Counted from the first letter of the stretch, positions 8,223-56,773 are shown. The stretch: DNA of 64,000 nt from Gammaproteobacteria bacterium (GCA_965261775.1 OZ253477.1:933239-997238), one strand, 5' to 3'. The notes: generated by a model from the sequence alone, not told the origin. Numbers and translations are program-made.

Positions 8223-8225
8223 TCT

Positions 8226-8849
8226 ATGCCGTATCGATTATTTACAGTTGCCATTTTGCTCTGTGTTCTTCCCGTGTTTGTGCATGCGAAGACGCTGCTT
8301 GTGCTCGGCGACAGTCTCAGCGCCGCCTATGGTATCCCGGTGGAACGGGGCTGGGTATCTTTGCTGGCACAACGCATTATAAAACATAAACTGGATTATA
8401 ATGTTGTCAATGCCAGTATCAGCGGTGAAACAACGGTCGGGGCAAGACGGCGTTTGCCGAAACTTCTGGATGAAATCCGCCCCGGGGTCGTTATCGTTGA
8501 ACTGGGTGGAAACGATGGCCTGCGCGGTTTTCCACTGGATGAGATTGAACGAAATCTGACAGCAATCATTGCTATGATACGGCAAGCGGGCGGGTATGTC
8601 CTGCTCGTGCCGATGCGATTGCCGTCCAATTACGGGGCCGCGTACAATCAGCGTTTCAGTGCCATCTACGACCGCCTGGCCGTTCCCCTGAATGTCAATT
8701 TATCCACGTTCATTCTGCACAACATCGCTCAATACCCCGAATTAATGCAAGACGACGGCATTCACCCGGTGGCCGACGCGCAATCCGTGATGCTGGAAAA
8801 TATCTGGCCGGCATTGCTGAATCTGATGCAACAGACAGAAAACCGATAG
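8226..8849 (+). CDS. tesA: acyl-CoA thioesterase I / lysophospholipase L1 (SGNH/GDSL hydrolase TesA)
   Basis: Signal peptide, GDSLS block, GGNDGLRG block. Divergent from ybbA as in E. coli. Confidence 0.85.
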   Translation: MPYRLFTVAILLCVLPVFVHAKTLLVLGDSLSAAYGIPVERGWVSLLAQRIIKHKLDYNVVNASISGETTVGARRRLPKLLDEIRPGVVIVELGGNDGLRGFPLDEIERNLTAIIAMIRQAGGYVLLVPMRLPSNYGAAYNQRFSAIYDRLAVPLNVNLSTFILHNIAQYPELMQDDGIHPVADAQSVMLENIWPALLNLMQQTENR

Positions 8850-18410: not shown

Positions 18411-19085
18411 ATGAAACGTATTCCCGAACCCGAGTTGATGACCGAAACGGCGCAGGCAGCAGCCTATGCCAATGCGGATTTTGAGGAGCCGCACAGTCAT
18501 TTCATCACATTACTAAAAGACAGGATCGGCCGTTATTTGCCTGAATCGGGCCGGGCGGTTGATTTGGGCTGCGGCGCGGCGGACATCAGTATCCGTTTTG
18601 CCAGGGACTGGCCACGCTACCATATTGATGCGCTGGATGGCGCTTCCGCCATGCTGGCGGAGGCCCGTAAAGCACTCGCTGGTTCGGGTTTAACGGATCG
18701 AATTACCCTGATTGAGACCGGTATCAATGTTTCGTCACTCACGGAGCGGAATTACGATCTGATATTGAGCAACAGCCTGTTGCATCATCTGCATGATCCG
18801 ATGGTATTGTGGGAAACCATCAGGAACGCCGACGGGGCACCATACGTTTTCATTATGGATTTAATGCGCCCGGAAAATCAGACCCGGGTTGATGAGTTGC
18901 TGAACAAATATGCCGGAAATGAACCCGGGATATTACAACGCGATTTCGGCAATTCGTTGAGGGCGGCCTTTACCCCGGAGGAGGTCGAATCCCAGCTAAG
19001 TGCGGCCGGATTGGAAAAGTTAGGGGTTTCCGTTGTATCCGACCGTCACTTTATTGTCAGCACCCCGGGGCAAGTTCCGGATTAA
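18411..19085 (+). CDS. class I SAM-dependent methyltransferase
   Basis: VDLGCGAADIS motif I, 224 aa. Confidence 0.7.
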   Translation: MKRIPEPELMTETAQAAAYANADFEEPHSHFITLLKDRIGRYLPESGRAVDLGCGAADISIRFARDWPRYHIDALDGASAMLAEARKALAGSGLTDRITLIETGINVSSLTERNYDLILSNSLLHHLHDPMVLWETIRNADGAPYVFIMDLMRPENQTRVDELLNKYAGNEPGILQRDFGNSLRAAFTPEEVESQLSAAGLEKLGVSVVSDRHFIVSTPGQVPD

Positions 19086-20092
19086 GCCAAAGCCTCTTTT
19101 GTCGTCTTGACAATGACAGCCGCGACCTTGTAGGGGTCTGCATTGGAAGCGGGACGGCGATCTTCAAGACGTCCCTTCCAGCTATTCTCCACCGTGGCGA
19201 CCGGAATACGAATTGACGCGCCGCGATCAGATACACCGAAACTGAACTGCTCAATGGATTGCGTTTCATGTCTGCCGGTGAGCCGTTTTTCATTCTCGGC
19301 GCCATAAACCACGATATGACGTTCAATATTCCTGCCAAACGCCTCACAGATACTGGTAAAGACATCCTCACCGCCTGATTCACGCATAAAGCCGTTCGAG
19401 AAATTCGCATGCATACCCGAACCGTTCCAGTCAGCGTCTCCGAGCGGCTTCGGATGCCATTCAATGGCCAGTCCGTATTTCTCCGCAGTGCGTTCAAGCA
19501 GATAGCGGGCCAGCCAAGTCTGGTCACCGGCGCTTTTCGCGCTCATGGCAAATACCTGAAATTCCCACTGACCTGCCGCTACCTCGGCGTTAATACCCTC
19601 TATATTAAGGCCGGCCTCAATACAAAGATCAAGGTGTTCTTCAACGACTTCCCGGCCATAGGCGTTATTGGCACCGACAGAACAATAGTACGGTCCTTGC
19701 GGGCGCGGATAGCCCGCATGCGGGAAGCCGGGCGGCAAATTGATGTTGGGATCCCACAAAAAGTATTCCTGTTCAAAACCAAACCAAAAATCATCATCTT
19801 CGTCATCAATGGTTGAGCGCCCGTTTGATTCGTGCGGGGTACTATCGGCATTCAGTACCTCCGCCATCACAAGATAACCGTTTTTACGATCCGGGTCGGG
19901 AATAATCGCAACCGGCTTTAACAAACAATCGGAAGCGCCGCTATCCGCCTGTTGGGTGGAACTGCCGTCAAAGGACCATATCGGACAGTCTTCCAGTTCG
20001 CCAGAAAAATCCGATATTATCTGTGTTTTACTACGCAGGCTCTGGGTAGGTCTATACCCGTCAAGCCATATATATTCGAGTTTACTTTTCAT
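19082..20092 (-). CDS. glnII: glutamine synthetase type II (eukaryote-like GSII)
   Basis: KLEYIWLDGYRPTQSLRSKTQI...WSFDGSSTQQA...DCLLKPVAIIPDP...FGFEQEYFLW, near-identical in pattern to rhizobial GlnII. 336 aa. Confidence 0.88.
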   Translation of the reverse strand: MKSKLEYIWLDGYRPTQSLRSKTQIISDFSGELEDCPIWSFDGSSTQQADSGASDCLLKPVAIIPDPDRKNGYLVMAEVLNADSTPHESNGRSTIDDEDDDFWFGFEQEYFLWDPNINLPPGFPHAGYPRPQGPYYCSVGANNAYGREVVEEHLDLCIEAGLNIEGINAEVAAGQWEFQVFAMSAKSAGDQTWLARYLLERTAEKYGLAIEWHPKPLGDADWNGSGMHANFSNGFMRESGGEDVFTSICEAFGRNIERHIVVYGAENEKRLTGRHETQSIEQFSFGVSDRGASIRIPVATVENSWKGRLEDRRPASNADPYKVAAVIVKTTKEALA

Positions 20093-20340
20093 GATAAGTC
20101 GTTTTTCTCCCAGTTTATTACTTTAAAATACAGGAAAATATTATTTAAACCGAAGGCCCCACATTCTACTGCAATCTGAACAGGGCTCAGTTCATCTCCA
20201 TTGCGCCCGGGTCTGCGGACATCAGCCGCCAGATGATATAGCTATTGTGATTGCTGTGCTTGTACGGAAGGCCAATTGTAGCATATTGGCGTTGCACCGC
20301 AACACACTGCCTGTTTTATCATACCGGAGACCGAACCCGG

Positions 20341-21294
20341 CTAACCCCAGTCTTCCCTCAGAAGCCGGACCAGTTCTCGACAGCTTTGCATCCTGTTTTT
20401 GACAGGTTTGAGCAGGCATGCCATGGTTACCGTCTCCAGTAAATTCGGGATCGGTGTACGTGAAAAAGATGATATGTCTGGTGGATCTTCATTCAGTATT
20501 TTCTGACTCATTTCGTCAACAGTCTCCGCCGCAAAGGGTAATCGGCTCGCTAAAATTTCATAAAGAATGACACCAAGGCTATAAATATCCGTTCTGTAGT
20601 CAATATCCGGGGTGCGCTGTATCTGTTCTGGTGACATGTATGCAATCGTTCCCTGAAGTTCATCTGCATCGGTCATTGAATTCACTTTTTTATTAACCAT
20701 TTTTTCCAGCGTACGAACTGACTCGTCGTTACCGCCGGTCTGTCTCCAGACCTTTGCCAGCCCCCAATCCATCAACAAGACTTCACCAAAGGGGCCAACC
20801 AGAACATTCTCTGGCTTGATATCACGATGAACAACATGATGGCTATGCGCATATTCCAGGGCATAGGCGACCTGGATAATGACATTGATGAGTTGTTTCA
20901 GATCATAACGTTCACGATAATTGAGAATTTCACGCAGGGTATAACCGCGTACCAGTTTCATCGTGAAGTAGTAATGTCCTTTTATATCGCGGCCTAATTC
21001 ATACGTAGGGACGGTATTGGGATGTTGTAGCAAAGCATTTATCCGCGCTTCCCGCAAAAAACGTTTTTGCTCTATCAGATCATCGGCAAATTCAGGTCTT
21101 AGCTTTTTATAACAGATCGTACGCGACAGATAGCGATCTTTGCAGGACTGGATAATCGCCCTGCCGCCACGCGCAATCGTTTTGAAATAGACGTAACGCG
21201 TACTCTGATTGAGTTTGAGTGGCAACGCCTTGTCAGTGTCTTCCAGATAAACGACGGCGTAATCATCATCCAGCATTTTCGGGAAAATCGTCAT
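20341..21294 (-). CDS. Hanks-type serine/threonine protein kinase
   Basis: HRDIKPENVL catalytic loop, DWGLAK (DFG-like) and APE (SPEQ) motifs. 317 aa with no extra domains. Confidence 0.85.
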   Translation of the reverse strand: MTIFPKMLDDDYAVVYLEDTDKALPLKLNQSTRYVYFKTIARGGRAIIQSCKDRYLSRTICYKKLRPEFADDLIEQKRFLREARINALLQHPNTVPTYELGRDIKGHYYFTMKLVRGYTLREILNYRERYDLKQLINVIIQVAYALEYAHSHHVVHRDIKPENVLVGPFGEVLLMDWGLAKVWRQTGGNDESVRTLEKMVNKKVNSMTDADELQGTIAYMSPEQIQRTPDIDYRTDIYSLGVILYEILASRLPFAAETVDEMSQKILNEDPPDISSFSRTPIPNLLETVTMACLLKPVKNRMQSCRELVRLLREDWG

Positions 21295-21509
21295 GGATTA
21301 TCCTTGGTAAAAATAGTCTTCTTTTGATATAATTTCCAAACGTCTATACAAATATTATAGACAATGTCGCGAATTAAAATGGAAATCGGACTGACTGTAA
21401 ATGCATACTGTATCTGAAAAAATAACGCCGGGGGAAAAAGATATTACAAGTAATATCAAAAACGCAGTGATTGAATTGTATAATGATAACCCGGATTATT
21501 AATCCGACT

Positions 21510-22133
21510 ATGGAAGTTCATAAATTATCAGTCATCATATACCTTTTACCGGCGCTATTATCGGCGGAAACGGTATATAAATCCGTTGACGAAAAAGGAC
21601 AAGTGCTTTTTACGGACATGCCACCTGAAAACGCCGAAAAAATAACCATTGAAGAGCCAAATATTATTTCAATATCCGCCCCGGAACAACCTGATCAGGA
21701 AACAGCGAATCGGGACAGGCACACTTCATATACTACCCTGGAAATTGTCAATCCGGTGGACGATCAGATCATCACTGGAACACAAGGCAACTTTACGGTG
21801 GATGTTACTCTCAAACCGGATTTGGCGGAACAGGACGAGCTGGTTTTATTGATGGATGGCAAAGTGATGCAGAGCGGGAAAATAACACGATTCGTATTGA
21901 GTAATATTGATCGCGGGGCCCACACCCTTGAGGTCGCTGTTCGTAATGACAAAGAGAAACTGTCAAAACGTTCTCAACGTTCACAAGGAGTGACCGTGCA
22001 TATACGCAGGACAGCCAAACTTGATACCCGGCTTGTTCCTGATCCGGATGTCGTTACACCGTTGAATCCTCCAAAACCCCCGAAGCCGGAGGTCTCGCCG
22101 CTGAACCCACCCAAACCGAAACCAACGGAATGA
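21510..22133 (+). CDS. DUF4124 domain secreted protein (paralog A) with a Pro-rich PLNPPKP C-terminal tail
   Basis: Signal peptide then YKSVDEKGQVLFTDMPP, the DUF4124 signature. The C-terminus PLNPPKPPKPEVSPLNPPKPKPTE is a repeated Pro-Lys motif. Confidence 0.7.
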   Translation: MEVHKLSVIIYLLPALLSAETVYKSVDEKGQVLFTDMPPENAEKITIEEPNIISISAPEQPDQETANRDRHTSYTTLEIVNPVDDQIITGTQGNFTVDVTLKPDLAEQDELVLLMDGKVMQSGKITRFVLSNIDRGAHTLEVAVRNDKEKLSKRSQRSQGVTVHIRRTAKLDTRLVPDPDVVTPLNPPKPPKPEVSPLNPPKPKPTE

Positions 22134-22666
22134 TATTGGCAAAAATGTCTCTCATTGATATGAAAATCCCGATCCTGTTTTTGGGTCTCTTTTGCCTCTT
22201 CGCCGTACAGGCGGAAGGCATATACAAAACAGTTGATAAAGACGGAAACGTCCTTTTTTCCGATACGCCTTCTCCGGGCGCTGAAGAAGTAGAACTGCCG
22301 GAAATTCAGATCATAAAAAGCATAAAACTGGAAGACCTCCCTTCTTTTCCTGTTCTGGACAAGGTTGAGAAGGGGGAAGAACGTTATCAGTCAATTACTA
22401 TTATCGAACCGGAAGAGTCAACGGGTCTGCGTAGCAATAGTGGTGATTTTAAAATATCCGTCGCGCTGGAGCCCGCCCTCAAAGCGTCCCATCGCTTGGT
22501 CATCACTATGGACGGAGAAGAAGTCGCCAATGGCGTTGCAACCAGTATTTCAATTCAAAATGCCGATAGAGGGACACATCAGCTTGAGGCACGGGTAGTC
22601 GATACAGAAGACGAAACGCTCATCTCCACCAACAGCAGCTTCACCCTGTTGCGAACTGCTCAATAA
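22130..22666 (+). CDS. DUF4124 domain secreted protein (paralog B)
   Basis: Signal peptide then YKTVDKDGNVLFSDTPSP. The C-terminal half is paralogous to paralog A. There is a 4-bp start/stop overlap. Confidence 0.7.
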   Translation: MILAKMSLIDMKIPILFLGLFCLFAVQAEGIYKTVDKDGNVLFSDTPSPGAEEVELPEIQIIKSIKLEDLPSFPVLDKVEKGEERYQSITIIEPEESTGLRSNSGDFKISVALEPALKASHRLVITMDGEEVANGVATSISIQNADRGTHQLEARVVDTEDETLISTNSSFTLLRTAQ

Positions 22667-22863
22667 ATTACACTCGCATTCGAGATCCTTCATAAATCAT
22701 TCGGAGTCAGCCCCGGCCCGCTTCCCCAAGGGCGCCGCGGCAAGAGATGACGATGGATAACACCCGGGGACGAACGGGGGATGTGGCGTTGTTCTTTACA
22801 GAAGCCATCATAAGACTGTTTTTTAAATCCGTGGGAACCGACAGCGTCCGCCGTTATTCATTA

Positions 22864-52495: not shown

Positions 52496-53470
52496 TCAGG
52501 AAGCCAGACGCAGGCTGATCAAGTAAAACGCAGTAGCGCCGCATAGACAAAACAGGATTAACCAAAACAGGGAATGAAGATGCAGTTTCCGGGTCAGGGT
52601 ATTCTGTTCAACGGCGGACAGAATGAATGGCCGCCGACTGTCGTTGGTTTTACCTATCCGATTGATCGGTGGTATTTTTTTCCGTTCGCCATATTTCTTT
52701 TTGGCCTCCTGATAAGCGGCTTCCCTGACTTTCTGCCATTCCTGCATGGACAGTTTGCCGTCTTTATTTGAATCAAACCGTTTCATTAACGTTTCCGTAT
52801 CTTGTTTCCATTCACGCAACAAGTCGCGTACATCGGCATTGACGTCAAGTGTCGTGCCCGCCCCACCTATCGTCTCGTACAGGCCAATAGCATAAAGACG
52901 ATTACCGGGATATAACAATTTCTCTGTATATCGATACTTCTTAAAGCTGCCCCCAAAACCGCTAAGAGAAATAAGTTTGTCCAAAGCGGGTATTTTACGC
53001 GCTGTTGGCGGACGGCGCGAGGGCGTATCGCTGTCGCCATACCACACATAGCCGTCTTTAACAGTAACGGACGCCCTCTCGGGGTCAATGATACATTGAC
53101 CGGTTTCATCTTTAATCAGAAACAACGAATCGCTCGCCTCTCTACGTACGGTATACCATCTGTTGCTTTTCGAGGTTGTCCTCCGCTTTTCAAGCCGATA
53201 TTCATACCAGAGACAGGTATCGCCGGAGAATGGCGAGGTAATGGGCTGCCCCTCGATCAAGTGGCCATGGCCGACAAGCTCAACATAGCCCTGCGAGGCG
53301 GAGCGGATCTTTGCGGTCGGCGTATCTTCAATAATGCGTTTTCGGTGGATCAGGCTGAAGGTACGGAAAAAAGAAACTCCACAGATGATCACCAATAAAA
53401 CGGCGTAAAACCAGAATTCATCGTCAGGCGCATTTTCAACCCACTGCGCCACTTTTGAAAAGATACCCAT
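52496..53470 (-). CDS. double-TM membrane protein with EF-hand Ca-binding loop, tandem copy 1 (possible GIDE-like family)
   Basis: N-terminal TM FWFYAVLLVIICGVSFF, C-terminal TM LFWLILFCLCGATAFYLISL, EF-hand loop DSNKDGKLSMQE. AGGAGG Shine-Dalgarno. Confidence 0.7.
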   Translation of the reverse strand: MGIFSKVAQWVENAPDDEFWFYAVLLVIICGVSFFRTFSLIHRKRIIEDTPTAKIRSASQGYVELVGHGHLIEGQPITSPFSGDTCLWYEYRLEKRRTTSKSNRWYTVRREASDSLFLIKDETGQCIIDPERASVTVKDGYVWYGDSDTPSRRPPTARKIPALDKLISLSGFGGSFKKYRYTEKLLYPGNRLYAIGLYETIGGAGTTLDVNADVRDLLREWKQDTETLMKRFDSNKDGKLSMQEWQKVREAAYQEAKKKYGERKKIPPINRIGKTNDSRRPFILSAVEQNTLTRKLHLHSLFWLILFCLCGATAFYLISLRLAS

Positions 53471-53482
53471 CTCGTAGACCTC

Positions 53483-54064
53483 CTAGCCGAAAAGCGCCTT
53501 GATATCTACATCCTTTTTTTCTTCCTCGTCAAATTCAAGCAAACTCGCCTCACGAAAGGCCAGCGCTCTGGCCACAATGATATCCGGGAACTGTTCAATA
53601 CGGATATTGTTGACGTTGACCGACTCATTATAAAATTCGCGGCGGTCGGCAATAGCGTCTTCAAGACCCGATATCCTGGTCTGCAGATGATTGAATGTCT
53701 CATTGGCCTTTAAGTCGGGATAAGCCTCGGCCAGGGCAAATAAATTACCAAGACCCAGCCGCAACTGGCCTTCCGCCGGGCCGAGGGAGGCAATATCCCC
53801 TTGTTCTCTGGCCGCCGCCACAGCAGCCCGCGCGCGCATCACCTTTTCCAGTGTCTCCTGTTCAAAACCCATATATTGCTTACAGGTATCGACCAGCTTG
53901 GGAAGCTCTTCATGGCGCTGTTTCAGCAAGATATCAATATTGGACCACGACTTGGTGACATTATGCTTCAACGACACCAGATTGTTATAAATGACCACGC
54001 CATAGACCACAACGGCCACAATAGCAAAGACGATAACCAATAAAATAACGCTCAACACTTCCAT
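53483..54064 (-). CDS. lemA: LemA family protein (intact copy)
   Basis: N-terminal TM then the LemA domain (...NLFALAEAYPDLKANETF...YNESV). GGGAGG Shine-Dalgarno before ATG 54064. Confidence 0.8.
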   Translation of the reverse strand: MEVLSVILLVIVFAIVAVVVYGVVIYNNLVSLKHNVTKSWSNIDILLKQRHEELPKLVDTCKQYMGFEQETLEKVMRARAAVAAAREQGDIASLGPAEGQLRLGLGNLFALAEAYPDLKANETFNHLQTRISGLEDAIADRREFYNESVNVNNIRIEQFPDIIVARALAFREASLLEFDEEEKKDVDIKALFG

Positions 54065-54210
54065 TATTGCCTCCCGCACTTTTACGCCAAAGCAAAGCTA
54101 AAGTTACAGTATACCTGTGGTTTTTTCATTCACACAATGCGAATGGCCGGCCTCATTCACAATACAGCGCTTATTTACTATAGTAATCCCTATTATATAT
54201 CTTTTTCAAT

Positions 54211-54303
54211 ATCCGCTGCCTTGATAGAAGCGAAGGCGGGCAGACCATCCGCCCCGAGCAGAGACTTATGCCCGTTATGAGACAAGGTAAATACCTCTAC
54301 CAT
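54211..54303 (-). pseudogene. duplicated 5' fragment of prlC (start codon plus about 30 codons) carried along in amplification unit 2
   Basis: About 90% identical to 52377-52468. The ATG is retained and the frame closes after about 36 codons. Confidence 0.8.
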
Positions 54304-54330
54304 CCCGCCGACCCCGGTTTATGCGGTTGG

Positions 54331-55269
54331 TCAGGAAGCTAAACGCAGGCTGATCAAGTAAAACGCAGTAGCGCCGCATAGACAAAACAGGATTAACCAT
54401 AACATAGAATGAAGATGCAGTTCCCGGGTCAGGGTATTCTGTTCGACGGCGGACAGAATAAATGGCCGCCGACTGTCGTTGGTTTTACCTATTCGATTGA
54501 TCGGTGGCATTTTTTTCCGTTCGCCATATTTCTTTTTGGCCTCCTGATAAGCGGCTTCCCTGACTTTCTGCCATTCCTGCATGGACAGTTTGCCGTCTTT
54601 ATTGGTGTCAAACCGTTTCATTAACGTTTCCGTATCTTTTTTCCATTCACGTAACAAGTCGCGTACATCGGCATTGACATCAAGTGTCGTGCCCGCCCCA
54701 CCTATCGTCTCGTACAGGCCGATAGCATAAAGACGATCACCGGGATACAACAATCTCTCTGTATATCGATACTGATTATTAAAGTTGCTCCCCTCGGATA
54801 TTTTACGCGCTACTGGCGAACGGTGCGAAGGCATAGCGCTGCCATACCACACATAATCGTCTTTAACAGTAACAGACGCCCCCTCGGGGTCAATGATACA
54901 TTGACCGGTTTCATCTTTAATCAGAAACAACGAATCGCTCGCCTCTCTACGTACGGTGCGCCATACGTCCCTTATTAATAGGTTCATCAAGTTTATCTCC
55001 TGCTTTTCAACCTGATATTCATACCAGAGACAGGTATCGCCGGAGAGCGGCGAGGTAATGGGCTGCTCCTCGATCAAGTGGCCATGCCCGACAAGCTCAA
55101 CATAGCCCTGCGAGGCGGAGCGGATCTTTGCGGTCGGCGTATCTTCAATAATGCGTTTTCGGTGGATCAGGCTGAAAGTATAGAAAAAAGAAACTCCACA
55201 GATGAACACCAAGAAAACAGCGCGAAACCAGAATTCATAGGCAGGCGCATTTTCAACCCACTGCGCCAC
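54331..55269 (-). CDS. EF-hand double-TM membrane protein, tandem copy 2. Codon 7 is a nonsense mutation (AAA to TAA); the ORF continues from the adjacent GTG
   Basis: Minus strand reads ATGATGGGTATCTTTTCATAAGTGGCGCAG. Downstream sequence is about 85% identical to copy 1. EF-hand loop DTNKDGKLSMQE. Confidence 0.6.
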   Translation of the reverse strand: MAQWVENAPAYEFWFRAVFLVFICGVSFFYTFSLIHRKRIIEDTPTAKIRSASQGYVELVGHGHLIEEQPITSPLSGDTCLWYEYQVEKQEINLMNLLIRDVWRTVRREASDSLFLIKDETGQCIIDPEGASVTVKDDYVWYGSAMPSHRSPVARKISEGSNFNNQYRYTERLLYPGDRLYAIGLYETIGGAGTTLDVNADVRDLLREWKKDTETLMKRFDTNKDGKLSMQEWQKVREAAYQEAKKKYGERKKMPPINRIGKTNDSRRPFILSAVEQNTLTRELHLHSMLWLILFCLCGATAFYLISLRLAS

Positions 55270-55299
55270 TTATGAAAAGATACCCATCATGCAGACCTC

Positions 55300-55437
55300 C
55301 TAGTCGAAAAGCGCCTTGATATCCACACCCTTTTTTTCTTCCTCGTCAAATTCAAGCAAACTCGCCTCACGAAAGGCCAGCGCTCTGGCCACAATAGCAA
55401 AGACAATAACCAATAAAATAACGCTCAACACTTCCAT
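55300..55437 (-). pseudogene. lemA remnant: an in-frame internal deletion leaves a 45-codon miniprotein (N-terminal TM fused to the C-terminal tail). The deletion junction is at the 9-bp direct repeat ATTGTGGCC
   Basis: By alignment to the intact lemA, the 96-nt 3' end is joined directly to the 42-nt 5' end. Frame and ATG are retained. Confidence 0.75.
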
Positions 55438-55555
55438 TATTGCCTCCCGCACTTTTACGCCAAAGCAAAGCTACAGTATACCTGTGGTTTTTTTCATTCA
55501 CACAATGCGAATGGCCTCCATTTACCATCCCGCCGACCCCGGTTTATGCGGTCGG

Positions 55556-56545
55556 TCAGGAAGCTAAACGCAGGCTGATCAAGTAAAACGCCGCAATGCC
55601 GCCTATCCAAAACAGGGCGAACCATAACATAGAATGAAGATGCAGTTTCCGGGTCAGGGTATTCTGTTCAATGGAGGACAGAATAAATGACTGCCGACTG
55701 TCGTTTGTTTTACTCATCAGATTGATCGGTGCCATTTTTTTCCGTGCGCCATGTGTTTTTGTGACATCCTGATAAGCGGCTTCCCTGACTTTCTGCCATT
55801 CCTGCATGGACAGTTTGCCGTCTTTATTGGTGTCAAACCTTTTCTTTAACGTTTCCGTATCTTCTTTCCATTCACGCAACAAGTCGCATACATCGGCATT
55901 GACATCAAATTCTGCGTCCGCCCCACCGATGGTCTCGTACAGACCGATAGCGTAAAGACGATCACCGGGATACAACAATCTCTCTGTATATCGATACTGA
56001 TTATTAAAGTTGCTCCCAAAACCGCCAGGAAAAACAAATTTGTTCAAATCGGATATTTTACGCGCTACTGGCGAACGGGATGAGGGCATGTCGCTGTTGC
56101 CATACCACACATAGCCGTCTTTAACAGTAACAGACGCCCCCTCGGGATCAATGATACATTGACCGGTTTCATCTTTAAGCAGAAACAACGAATCGCTCGC
56201 CTCTCTACGTACGGTGCGCCATACGTACCCTCTGAAGTAGTTTATTGATGTTGTCGTCTGCTTTTCAACCTGATATTCATACCAGAGACAGGTATTACCG
56301 GAGAACGGCGAGGTAATGGGCTGTCCCTCGATCAAGTGGCCATGGCCGACAAGCTCGACATAGCCCTGCGAGGCGGAGCGGATATTTGTGGTCGGCGTAT
56401 CTTCAATAATGCGTTTTCGGTGGACCAGGCTGAAGGTACGGAAAAAAGAAACCCCACAGATGATTACCAATAAAACGGCACAAACCCAGAATTCATAGGC
56501 AGGCGCATTTTCAACCCACTGTGCCACTTCTGAAAAGATACCCAT
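55556..56545 (-). CDS. EF-hand double-TM membrane protein, tandem copy 3
   Basis: MGIFSEVAQWVENAPAYEFW... 329 aa. EF-hand loop DTNKDGKLSMQE. Confidence 0.7.
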   Translation of the reverse strand: MGIFSEVAQWVENAPAYEFWVCAVLLVIICGVSFFRTFSLVHRKRIIEDTPTTNIRSASQGYVELVGHGHLIEGQPITSPFSGNTCLWYEYQVEKQTTTSINYFRGYVWRTVRREASDSLFLLKDETGQCIIDPEGASVTVKDGYVWYGNSDMPSSRSPVARKISDLNKFVFPGGFGSNFNNQYRYTERLLYPGDRLYAIGLYETIGGADAEFDVNADVCDLLREWKEDTETLKKRFDTNKDGKLSMQEWQKVREAAYQDVTKTHGARKKMAPINLMSKTNDSRQSFILSSIEQNTLTRKLHLHSMLWFALFWIGGIAAFYLISLRLAS

Positions 56546-56557
56546 CTCGTAGACCTC

Positions 56558-56690
56558 CTAGCCGAAAAGCGCCTTGATATCTACATCCTTTTTTTCTTCC
56601 TCGTCAAATTCAAGCAAACTCGCCTCACGAAAAGCCAGCGCTCTGGCCACAATAGCAAAGACGATAATCAATAAAATACGGCAACCATTA
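56558..56690 (-). pseudogene. second lemA remnant: same deletion junction as 55300-55437, plus loss of the in-frame ATG
   Basis: Alignment to the intact lemA. The N-terminal region has diverged and the only ATG is out of frame. Confidence 0.65.
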
Positions 56691-56773
56691 TCCACAACAC
56701 AGCGCCTATTTACTATATAATAAACTCTGCTCATATATATTTTTTAACGTATATTTAAGACAGGGAAAAGATC

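Follow-up and report, generated by a model that had tools for sequence, protein, structure and literature searches.

A stretch of 64,000 nucleotides (nt) from a Gammaproteobacteria bacterium (GCA_965261775.1 OZ253477.1:933239-997238), hereafter called the window, carries on its minus strand, at 52496-56545, three paralogous genes for a membrane protein in which a GIDE/BAM beta-domain and an EF-hand module lie between two transmembrane (TM) helices. The three genes, here copies 1, 2 and 3, differ from one another chiefly in two short segments, patch 1 and patch 2. We find that the locus is a tandem segmental triplication, and that its variable patches are probably explained by divergence of the duplicates in tolerant loops, combined with concerted evolution, after a lineage-specific triplication of a lemA-GIDE/EF-hand module. 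The array adds one more example of a known evolutionary pattern, within a family that has already been catalogued.

The differences among the three copies are clearly clustered. In their alignment 92 of 329 columns are variable, and the densest windows, columns 96-110 (14 of 15 variable) and 164-183 (17 of 20), correspond to the two patches, with permutation p values of 0.00005-0.0004; further, weaker clusters lie in the C-terminal helix and TM2 of copy 3 (p 0.03-0.08). A preliminary description of this DNA had reported three paralogs with their differences gathered in two segments, and this holds, down to the exact peptide strings that it quoted; uniform divergence along the genes, which it had named as the contrary outcome, was not seen. 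Its "near-identical" scaffold overstates an amino acid (aa) identity of 84-93% among the paralogs, at a synonymous divergence (dS) of 0.11-0.18. Likewise, "completely rewritten", with indels, is apt for patch 1, which combines dense substitutions with a 12-nt indel and in copy 2 has 13 private substitutions within 31 nt, but not for patch 2, where copies 1 and 3 share 84% DNA identity over 63 nt and copy 2 has the copy 3 sequence minus a clean in-frame 30-nt deletion, plus one substitution. Compensated frameshifts were also considered behind the patch 1 peptides and were ruled out, since the gapped nucleotide alignments fall short of high identity.

We placed the patches on AlphaFold2 (AF2) models of copies 1 and 3, using DSSP assignments and the predicted local distance difference test score (pLDDT) alone. 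Both models (pLDDT 91.7 and 92.6, respectively) consist of an N-terminal TM helix, a beta-rich domain, a helical EF-hand module and a C-terminal TM helix. Patch 1 maps to the tip of a beta-hairpin, which the four-residue insertion of copies 2 and 3 lengthens to strands E88-99/E106-116 in the copy 3 model. Patch 2 maps to a loop of 33-38 residues, whose pLDDT in copy 1 is 61-72 and drops below 50 at residues 170-172. The earlier picture of divergence concentrated in loops on a conserved scaffold is therefore upheld. The caveat attached to it, that the patches might be mere linkers, applies to patch 2, a flexible, linker-like loop that varies throughout the family, but not to patch 1, which forms a hairpin tip.

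Comparison with the wider family separates the two patches. A protein search returned 495 homologues of about 319 aa, mainly from uncultured sulfur-cycle Gammaproteobacteria. Among orthologue pairs, identity is 80-90% in the scaffold, 83% in patch 1 and 45% in patch 2, and patch 2 is the maximum of both entropy and gaps in the family alignment. Since orthologues themselves are just 45% identical there, the variability of patch 2, at 48-87% identity among the paralogs of the array (scaffold 81-93% in this comparison), is ordinary for the family. Patch 1, in contrast, evolves at the scaffold rate in orthologues and falls to 25-50% identity among the paralogs; copy 1, too, has lost the family-conserved SGKN turn of this region. 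The variability of patch 1 is thus exceptional, and it fits either a lost constraint or diversifying selection.

We next turn to the ratio of nonsynonymous to synonymous divergence (dN/dS, or omega), computed pairwise among the paralogs by the Nei-Gojobori method (W1, W2 and W3 denote copies 1, 2 and 3 of the window). The ratio is about 0.6 over the whole gene, 0.32-0.53 in the scaffold, 1.5-9.7 in patch 1 and 0.35-3.1 in patch 2. Scaffold omega is below one in all pairs (p=0.0007-0.016), and the scaffold is under purifying selection. The patch values do exceed one in places, but an omega above one is nominally significant in just one of six binomial tests (W1-W2 in patch 1, p=0.044) and in none after correction for multiple testing, and gene conversion confounds the dS baseline of these tests. 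Between W1 and W3, the proportions of nonsynonymous differences in patch 1 (pN 0.30) and patch 2 (pN 0.21) do not differ significantly from the proportion of synonymous differences in the scaffold (pS 0.16), which fits near-neutral evolution of both loops. All indels (12, 30, 3 and 3 nt) are multiples of three; together with the scaffold omega below one, this argues that the copies have been protein-coding for most of their history. An open reading frame (ORF) in itself is weak evidence of this, as in our simulation about 12% of ORFs of such size survived 55 random substitutions by chance.

The copies have also exchanged sequence. In a sliding-window comparison copy 2 is almost the same as copy 1 over its 3' 40%, and the flanks of its patch 2 match copy 3. 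A GENECONV-like permutation test identified mosaic tracts as expected of gene conversion, the longest concordant runs spanning 10-26 polymorphic sites (p=0.0002-0.008). One such tract, a 10-site run in TM2, joins W2 to W1, while copy 2 of a second strain (L2) agrees there with W3. Concerted evolution of this kind deflates the divergence of the scaffold and thereby exaggerates its contrast with the indel-bearing segments.

Outside this lineage the gene behaves quite differently. GIDE is present as a single copy in all 80 related genome loci compared (80/80), with lemA immediately upstream wherever the contig reaches and a usual synteny of bfr-lemA-GIDE-prlC-xthA; the nearest relatives are metagenome-assembled genomes (MAGs) of uncultured Gammaproteobacteria and Thiotrichaceae. 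A multi-copy array occurs in the window genome and in one further contig only, so that the gene content does not vary across relatives as it would in a diversifying family. The array is therefore a tandem triplication specific to this lineage, and the GIDE family behaves as a conserved core module, not as a variable multi-gene family.

The anatomy of the locus is that of repeated units, in the minus-strand order bfr, delta-lemA-GIDE3, delta-lemA-GIDE2, prlC', lemA-GIDE1, prlC, xthA (Table 1). Copy 1 lies directly downstream of the sole intact lemA, whose stop codon is separated from the copy 1 ATG by 12 nt. Ahead of copies 2 and 3 stand two lemA remnants, both of which have lost about 153 codons in frame, with an identical junction at a 9-bp direct repeat, ATTGTGGCC, and both of which keep the original stop codon 12 nt ahead of the GIDE start; they may preserve translational coupling or may encode a mini TM peptide. 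The duplicated 5' fragment of prlC (prlC') marks the 3' boundary of the duplicated unit. The reading frame of copy 2 is interrupted near its start: its sixth codon is TAA (55270-55272), at a place where the other copies and the second strain have GAA or AAA, and a GTG follows immediately (TAAGTG), from which, as a possible restart at 55269, the ORF finder listed a protein of 312 aa (54331-55269). Either copy 2 has been inactivated very recently, or the TAAGTG serves as a stop-restart arrangement. Additionally, a perfect inverted repeat with an 8-bp stem, GGTCAATGATACATTGACC, occurs at 53083-53101 and 54888-54906, within the most conserved coding stretch (TGQCIID) of copies 1 and 2; it was flagged on the opposite strand by a terminator scan and is probably coincidental to the coding sequence.

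Table 1 Features of the lemA-GIDE array, in window coordinates.
Feature	Position	Strand	Description	Basis
Copy 1	52496..53470	-	324 aa, TM-GIDE/BAM-EF-hand-TM	ORF
EF-hand loop, copy 1	52739..52774	-	DSNKDGKLSMQE, residues 233-244, canonical DxNxDGxxxxxE	
Patch 2, copy 1	52922..53032	-	residues 147-183; long loop joining strands E139-145 and E179-186	
Patch 1, copy 1	53147..53200	-	YRLEKRRTTSKSNRWYTV, residues 91-108; beta-hairpin tip E88-98/E103-112	
Intact lemA	53483..54079	-	198 aa	Pfam LemA
prlC' (duplicated prlC 5' fragment)	54193..54303	-	36 codons, MVEVFTLSHNGHKSLLGADGLPAFASIKAADIEKDI, after copy 2	
Copy 2	54331..55287	-	mosaic paralog; homologous ATG at 55287	DNA reading
Patch 2, copy 2	54757..54840	-	SAMPSHRSPVARKISEGSNFNNQYRYTE	
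Patch 1, copy 2	54952..55017	-	YQVEKQEINLMNLLIRDVWRTV	
lemA remnant before copy 2	55300..55437	-	in-frame 45-aa mini-ORF, internally deleted	sequence reading
Copy 3	55556..56545	-	329 aa, intact	ORF
Patch 2, copy 3	55982..56095	-	SDMPSSRSPVARKISDLNKFVFPGGFGSNFNNQYRYTE; pLDDT 54-77	
Patch 1, copy 3	56210..56275	-	YQVEKQTTTSINYFRGYVWRTV; 12-nt insertion	
lemA remnant before copy 3	56558..56734	-	58-aa ORF, 5' end rearranged	sequence reading

The second strain is represented by an ENA metagenome contig, L001, which has the same three-copy array. Its counterpart of the lemA remnant ahead of copy 2 is called there as a 45-aa gene and is matched by residues 168-196 of LemA in tblastn, and prlC' recurs in the equivalent place (8224-8322; PrlC residues 1-33). 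A search of about 5.8 billion protein clusters yielded nothing above 60% identity apart from the window genome and L001, and two metagenome scans were empty. Against a nucleotide divergence of 0.66% between the two strains in the flanks, copy 1 differs by 1.5% (p 0.0048) and copy 3 by 0.8% (p 0.54). In sharp contrast, copy 2 (54331-55287 in the window, 7222-8196 in L001) differs by 15.5% (p 5e-116), and the delta-lemA directly upstream of it by 5.2%. The copy 2 sequences of the two strains are mosaics of different composition, having 69 and 54 private sites. The copy 2 slot is strain-variable, either because a larger ancestral array lost different members or because recombination brought sequence in. 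The patches of copies 1 and 3 are unchanged in L001 (98.5% and 99.4% aa identity for the two copies), indicating that these patches are not mutating rapidly. The L001 copy 2 is an otherwise intact ORF with possible signs of functional decay: its EF-hand loop, DTNKDDKLSVQE, has the conserved glycine at loop position 6 replaced by aspartate (G238D), and the conserved F19 and W20 of TM1 are both leucine (F19L/W20L).

The assignment of these proteins to the BAM/GIDE family is well grounded. The GIDE profile PF12483 scores 45.4, 40.0 and 40.0 bits in copies 1 to 3 against a cut-off of 23.6 (E=7.5e-12 in copy 1, above the gathering score), the homologues have precomputed PF12483 annotation, and the beta-domain lies between two AF2 helices, 16-49 and 289-323, with hydrophobic stretches. 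Each copy has one canonical EF-hand loop, D[ST]NKDGKLSMQE (DSNKDGKLSMQE or DTNKDGKLSMQE), set between helices H225-232 and H242-265 and putatively Ca2+-binding; the Pfam EF-hand_5 score of 23.1-25.5 bits is slightly below the cut-off of 25.9 (E=4.7e-5 in copy 1). Searched against the PDB, the family profile matched only the EF-hands of troponin C (E=3.6e-5) and polcalcin, and no similar solved structure was found for the beta-domain. The proteins share the TM, beta-domain, TM architecture of the BAM/GIDE proteins, which comprise eukaryotic MAPL/MUL1/GIDE and prokaryotic relatives, but differ from them in the helical EF-hand module after the beta-domain, the pairing with lemA, the triplication and the lack of a RING. 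A C-terminal RING, as expected of a MAPL/MUL1 orthologue, was not detected by Pfam, and the chain stops four residues past TM2; the protein is therefore not an E3 ligase, despite the title of the Pfam family. Prokaryotic BAM proteins without a RING, and with no function assigned, have been described, as has the architecture of a TM-flanked BAM domain beside a membrane (PMC4457424).

As for topology, the preliminary description had asked whether the patches are surface-exposed periplasmic loops. Across 59 family members, lysine plus arginine residues average 4.6 in the segment after TM1 and 0.95 in the N-terminal tail, and the positive-inside rule therefore predicts a cytoplasmic rather than a periplasmic location for the whole GIDE/EF-hand region. 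The BAM domain of MAPL, by comparison, faces the intermembrane space (PMC4457424).

The partner gene is equally recognizable. The intact lemA product matches PF04011 with 146.7 bits against a cut-off of 26.2 (E=5.8e-43) and the Thermotoga maritima LemA structure 2ETD with E=2.5e-24, and it has the N-terminal TM helix and helical bundle of the family, to which MamQ and the LemA-like domain of mycobacterial ML0451c also belong. It is clearly a member, whereas the other two of the three lemA copies here are remnants of 45-58 aa. LemA-like domains have been described as bundles of four helices on the cytoplasmic side of the membrane, with a role in scaffolding or membrane remodelling (bioRxiv 10.64898/2026.07.15.738315). 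Our literature search found no published link between LemA and GIDE.

The history that we propose would begin with a conserved two-gene membrane module, lemA plus TM-GIDE/BAM-EF-hand-TM, that was tandemly triplicated in the lineage of the window alone. The two extra units would then have lost most of lemA by one in-frame deletion between 9-bp repeats, whereas all GIDE copies would have continued to encode protein during most of the time since. Through repeated gene conversion and unequal exchange the scaffold would have been kept similar and copy 2 made a mosaic, while divergence would have built up in the long flexible loop of patch 2, hypervariable in every family member, and also in the beta-hairpin tip of patch 1, where the usual constraint may have been lost or changed in this lineage. 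We infer that relaxed constraint rather than adaptive diversification is the cause at patch 1; the cytoplasmic topology and any function of the lemA-GIDE module are likewise inferred.

Several results weigh against divergence in tolerant loops as the full account. In patch 1, W1 and W3 are identical at 7 of 16 positions, where the orthologues lead one to expect a fraction of 0.83 (p=0.0004). In the pairs that include copy 2, nonsynonymous divergence in patch 1 exceeds both synonymous divergence in the scaffold (p=1.8e-5 and 0.009) and divergence in patch 2, which is almost free of constraint (p=0.014 and 0.0006). Neutral relaxation alone would not produce such an excess, unless the comparators have been lowered by gene conversion. 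Relative-rate tests found no copy to be significantly faster or degenerating, and the stability of copies 1 and 3 in two strains, patches included, argues that these variants are kept rather than drifting. Some of these results would suit an unlikely, though by no means negligible, alternative: that positive or frequency-dependent selection diversifies the hairpin tip, and perhaps the long loop, as a specificity surface, the array being a small GIDE repertoire and copy 2 a strain-variable cassette slot. This explanation draws on a patch 1 divergence far above the family norm and the high patch 1 omega with its single nominal p value; on the W2 pairs, in which patch 1 pN surpasses scaffold pS and patch 2 pN; on the in-frame indels and the purifying selection on the scaffold, by which the copies encode proteins; on the conservation of copies 1 and 3 with distinct patches in both strains; and on the divergence of copy 2 between strains against the near identity of its flanks. 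However, its omega values do not survive multiple testing, the counts are tiny, with just two strains in the protein clusters and contig collections searched, and patch 2 varies no more than is typical of the family. Moreover, all the strong patch 1 excesses involve copy 2, the bearer of the early nonsense codon. Elsewhere the gene is a single-copy syntenic core gene; its domain is predicted to be cytoplasmic; and in PADLOC-DB neither GIDE copies 1 and 3 nor LemA had a significant match, the only hit of any kind being a chance-level one (0.0098) to DndH. The receptor-like or immunity-like family proposed in the preliminary description is not supported by these data: all 80 relatives are single-copy, PADLOC gave no match, and omega above one was not significant in five of the six patch comparisons.

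It is improbable, in our judgement, that copies 2 and 3 are decaying, non-functional duplicates in which the patches are a pile-up of neutral mutations and indels. The cognate lemA has indeed been deleted ahead of both extra copies, copy 2 has its nonsense codon at position 6, the L001 copy 2 shows the G238D change of its EF-hand loop as well as F19L/W20L in TM1, the whole-gene dN/dS is about 0.6, and chance alone could have left the frames open in the simulated proportion of cases. Yet scaffold omega is significantly below one in every pair, all of at least four indel events preserve the frame, copy 3 deviates at just 5 of 78 family-conserved positions, inside the orthologue range, and is 99.2% identical in nucleotides between the strains, no more diverged than the flanks, and the relative-rate tests were not significant. 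Very improbable indeed is an origin of the patches in targeted hypermutation, by a diversity-generating retroelement (DGR) or similar, or in an assembly artefact. The cluster of private substitutions in patch 1 of copy 2 and the metagenome or MAG-type nature of both source assemblies could be read in this way, but a blastn-short search with all patches found no second (template) copy in the 64-kb window, the mutation spectrum is ordinary (transition to transversion ratio about 1.5, not adenine-specific) and includes indels, and no reverse transcriptase is present among the 20 ORFs annotated in part of the window (about 1.2-26 kb). As to an artefact, copies 1 and 3 recur with their patches in the independent assembly L001. 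DGR variable proteins do resemble the present ones in showing localised variability on a constant scaffold; lacking a template repeat and an adenine-specific pattern within the 64-kb window, and having indels, the array was rejected as a DGR target.

A further likeness is found in paralog families such as Neisseria Opa, with its HV1/HV2 segments, and Helicobacter babA/babB, in which hypervariable loops are kept by gene conversion. Like them, the array combines a conserved scaffold with a pair of short hypervariable segments that contain in-frame indels, and conversion has made mosaics of its copies. Those families, however, are surface-exposed outer-membrane proteins with many alleles under host immune selection, whereas the array encodes, in triplicate, a protein of the inner membrane that probably faces the cytoplasm and of which only four variants are known. 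A bolder proposal, which we regard as doubtful, is that the hairpin tip is a specificity element in a small tandem repertoire of hairpin and loop variants whose middle slot is swapped between strains under frequency-dependent selection. The LemA-GIDE pair would then form the basis of a variable module that acts as a membrane sensor or is immunity-like. If true, such a module would be previously unrecognised.

As evidence for an immunity-like diversifying system the locus is weak, and its value lies elsewhere. The bacterial LemA-BAM/GIDE pair is widespread and syntenic, and its eukaryotic relative MAPL/MUL1 is medically important (see PMC4457424 on the ancestral role of BAM). The array is a natural experiment on which parts of such a protein tolerate change, namely the loop at residues 146-178 in every family member and the hairpin tip at 96-106 only here, and it shows GIDE copies persisting as coding genes without a full-length cognate lemA. 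This tolerance map would be useful for designing mutants and for choosing conserved surfaces. The locus is also a cautionary case, in that a conserved scaffold with hypervariable patches can come from loop tolerance combined with gene conversion.

The remainder of the window offers several minor observations. Rfam and tRNA scans of the 64 kb gave no tRNA gene and no Rfam family at threshold. The 20 annotated ORFs mentioned above are mostly ordinary chromosomal housekeeping genes, for example hemH, cysDN-like, groEL, rho, lysA and hemB. A 336-aa glutamine-synthetase-like ORF at 19082-20092 (minus strand) aligns with the catalytic-domain profile at positions 17-155 only, out of 344, and is possibly a glnA that is truncated or otherwise atypical. 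GC content reaches its minimum for the window (0.436) at 20000-22700, where the gene for a Ser/Thr protein kinase of eukaryotic type (20341-21294, minus strand) is found together with two neighbouring ORFs of the DUF4124 family (21471-22133 and 22130-22666).

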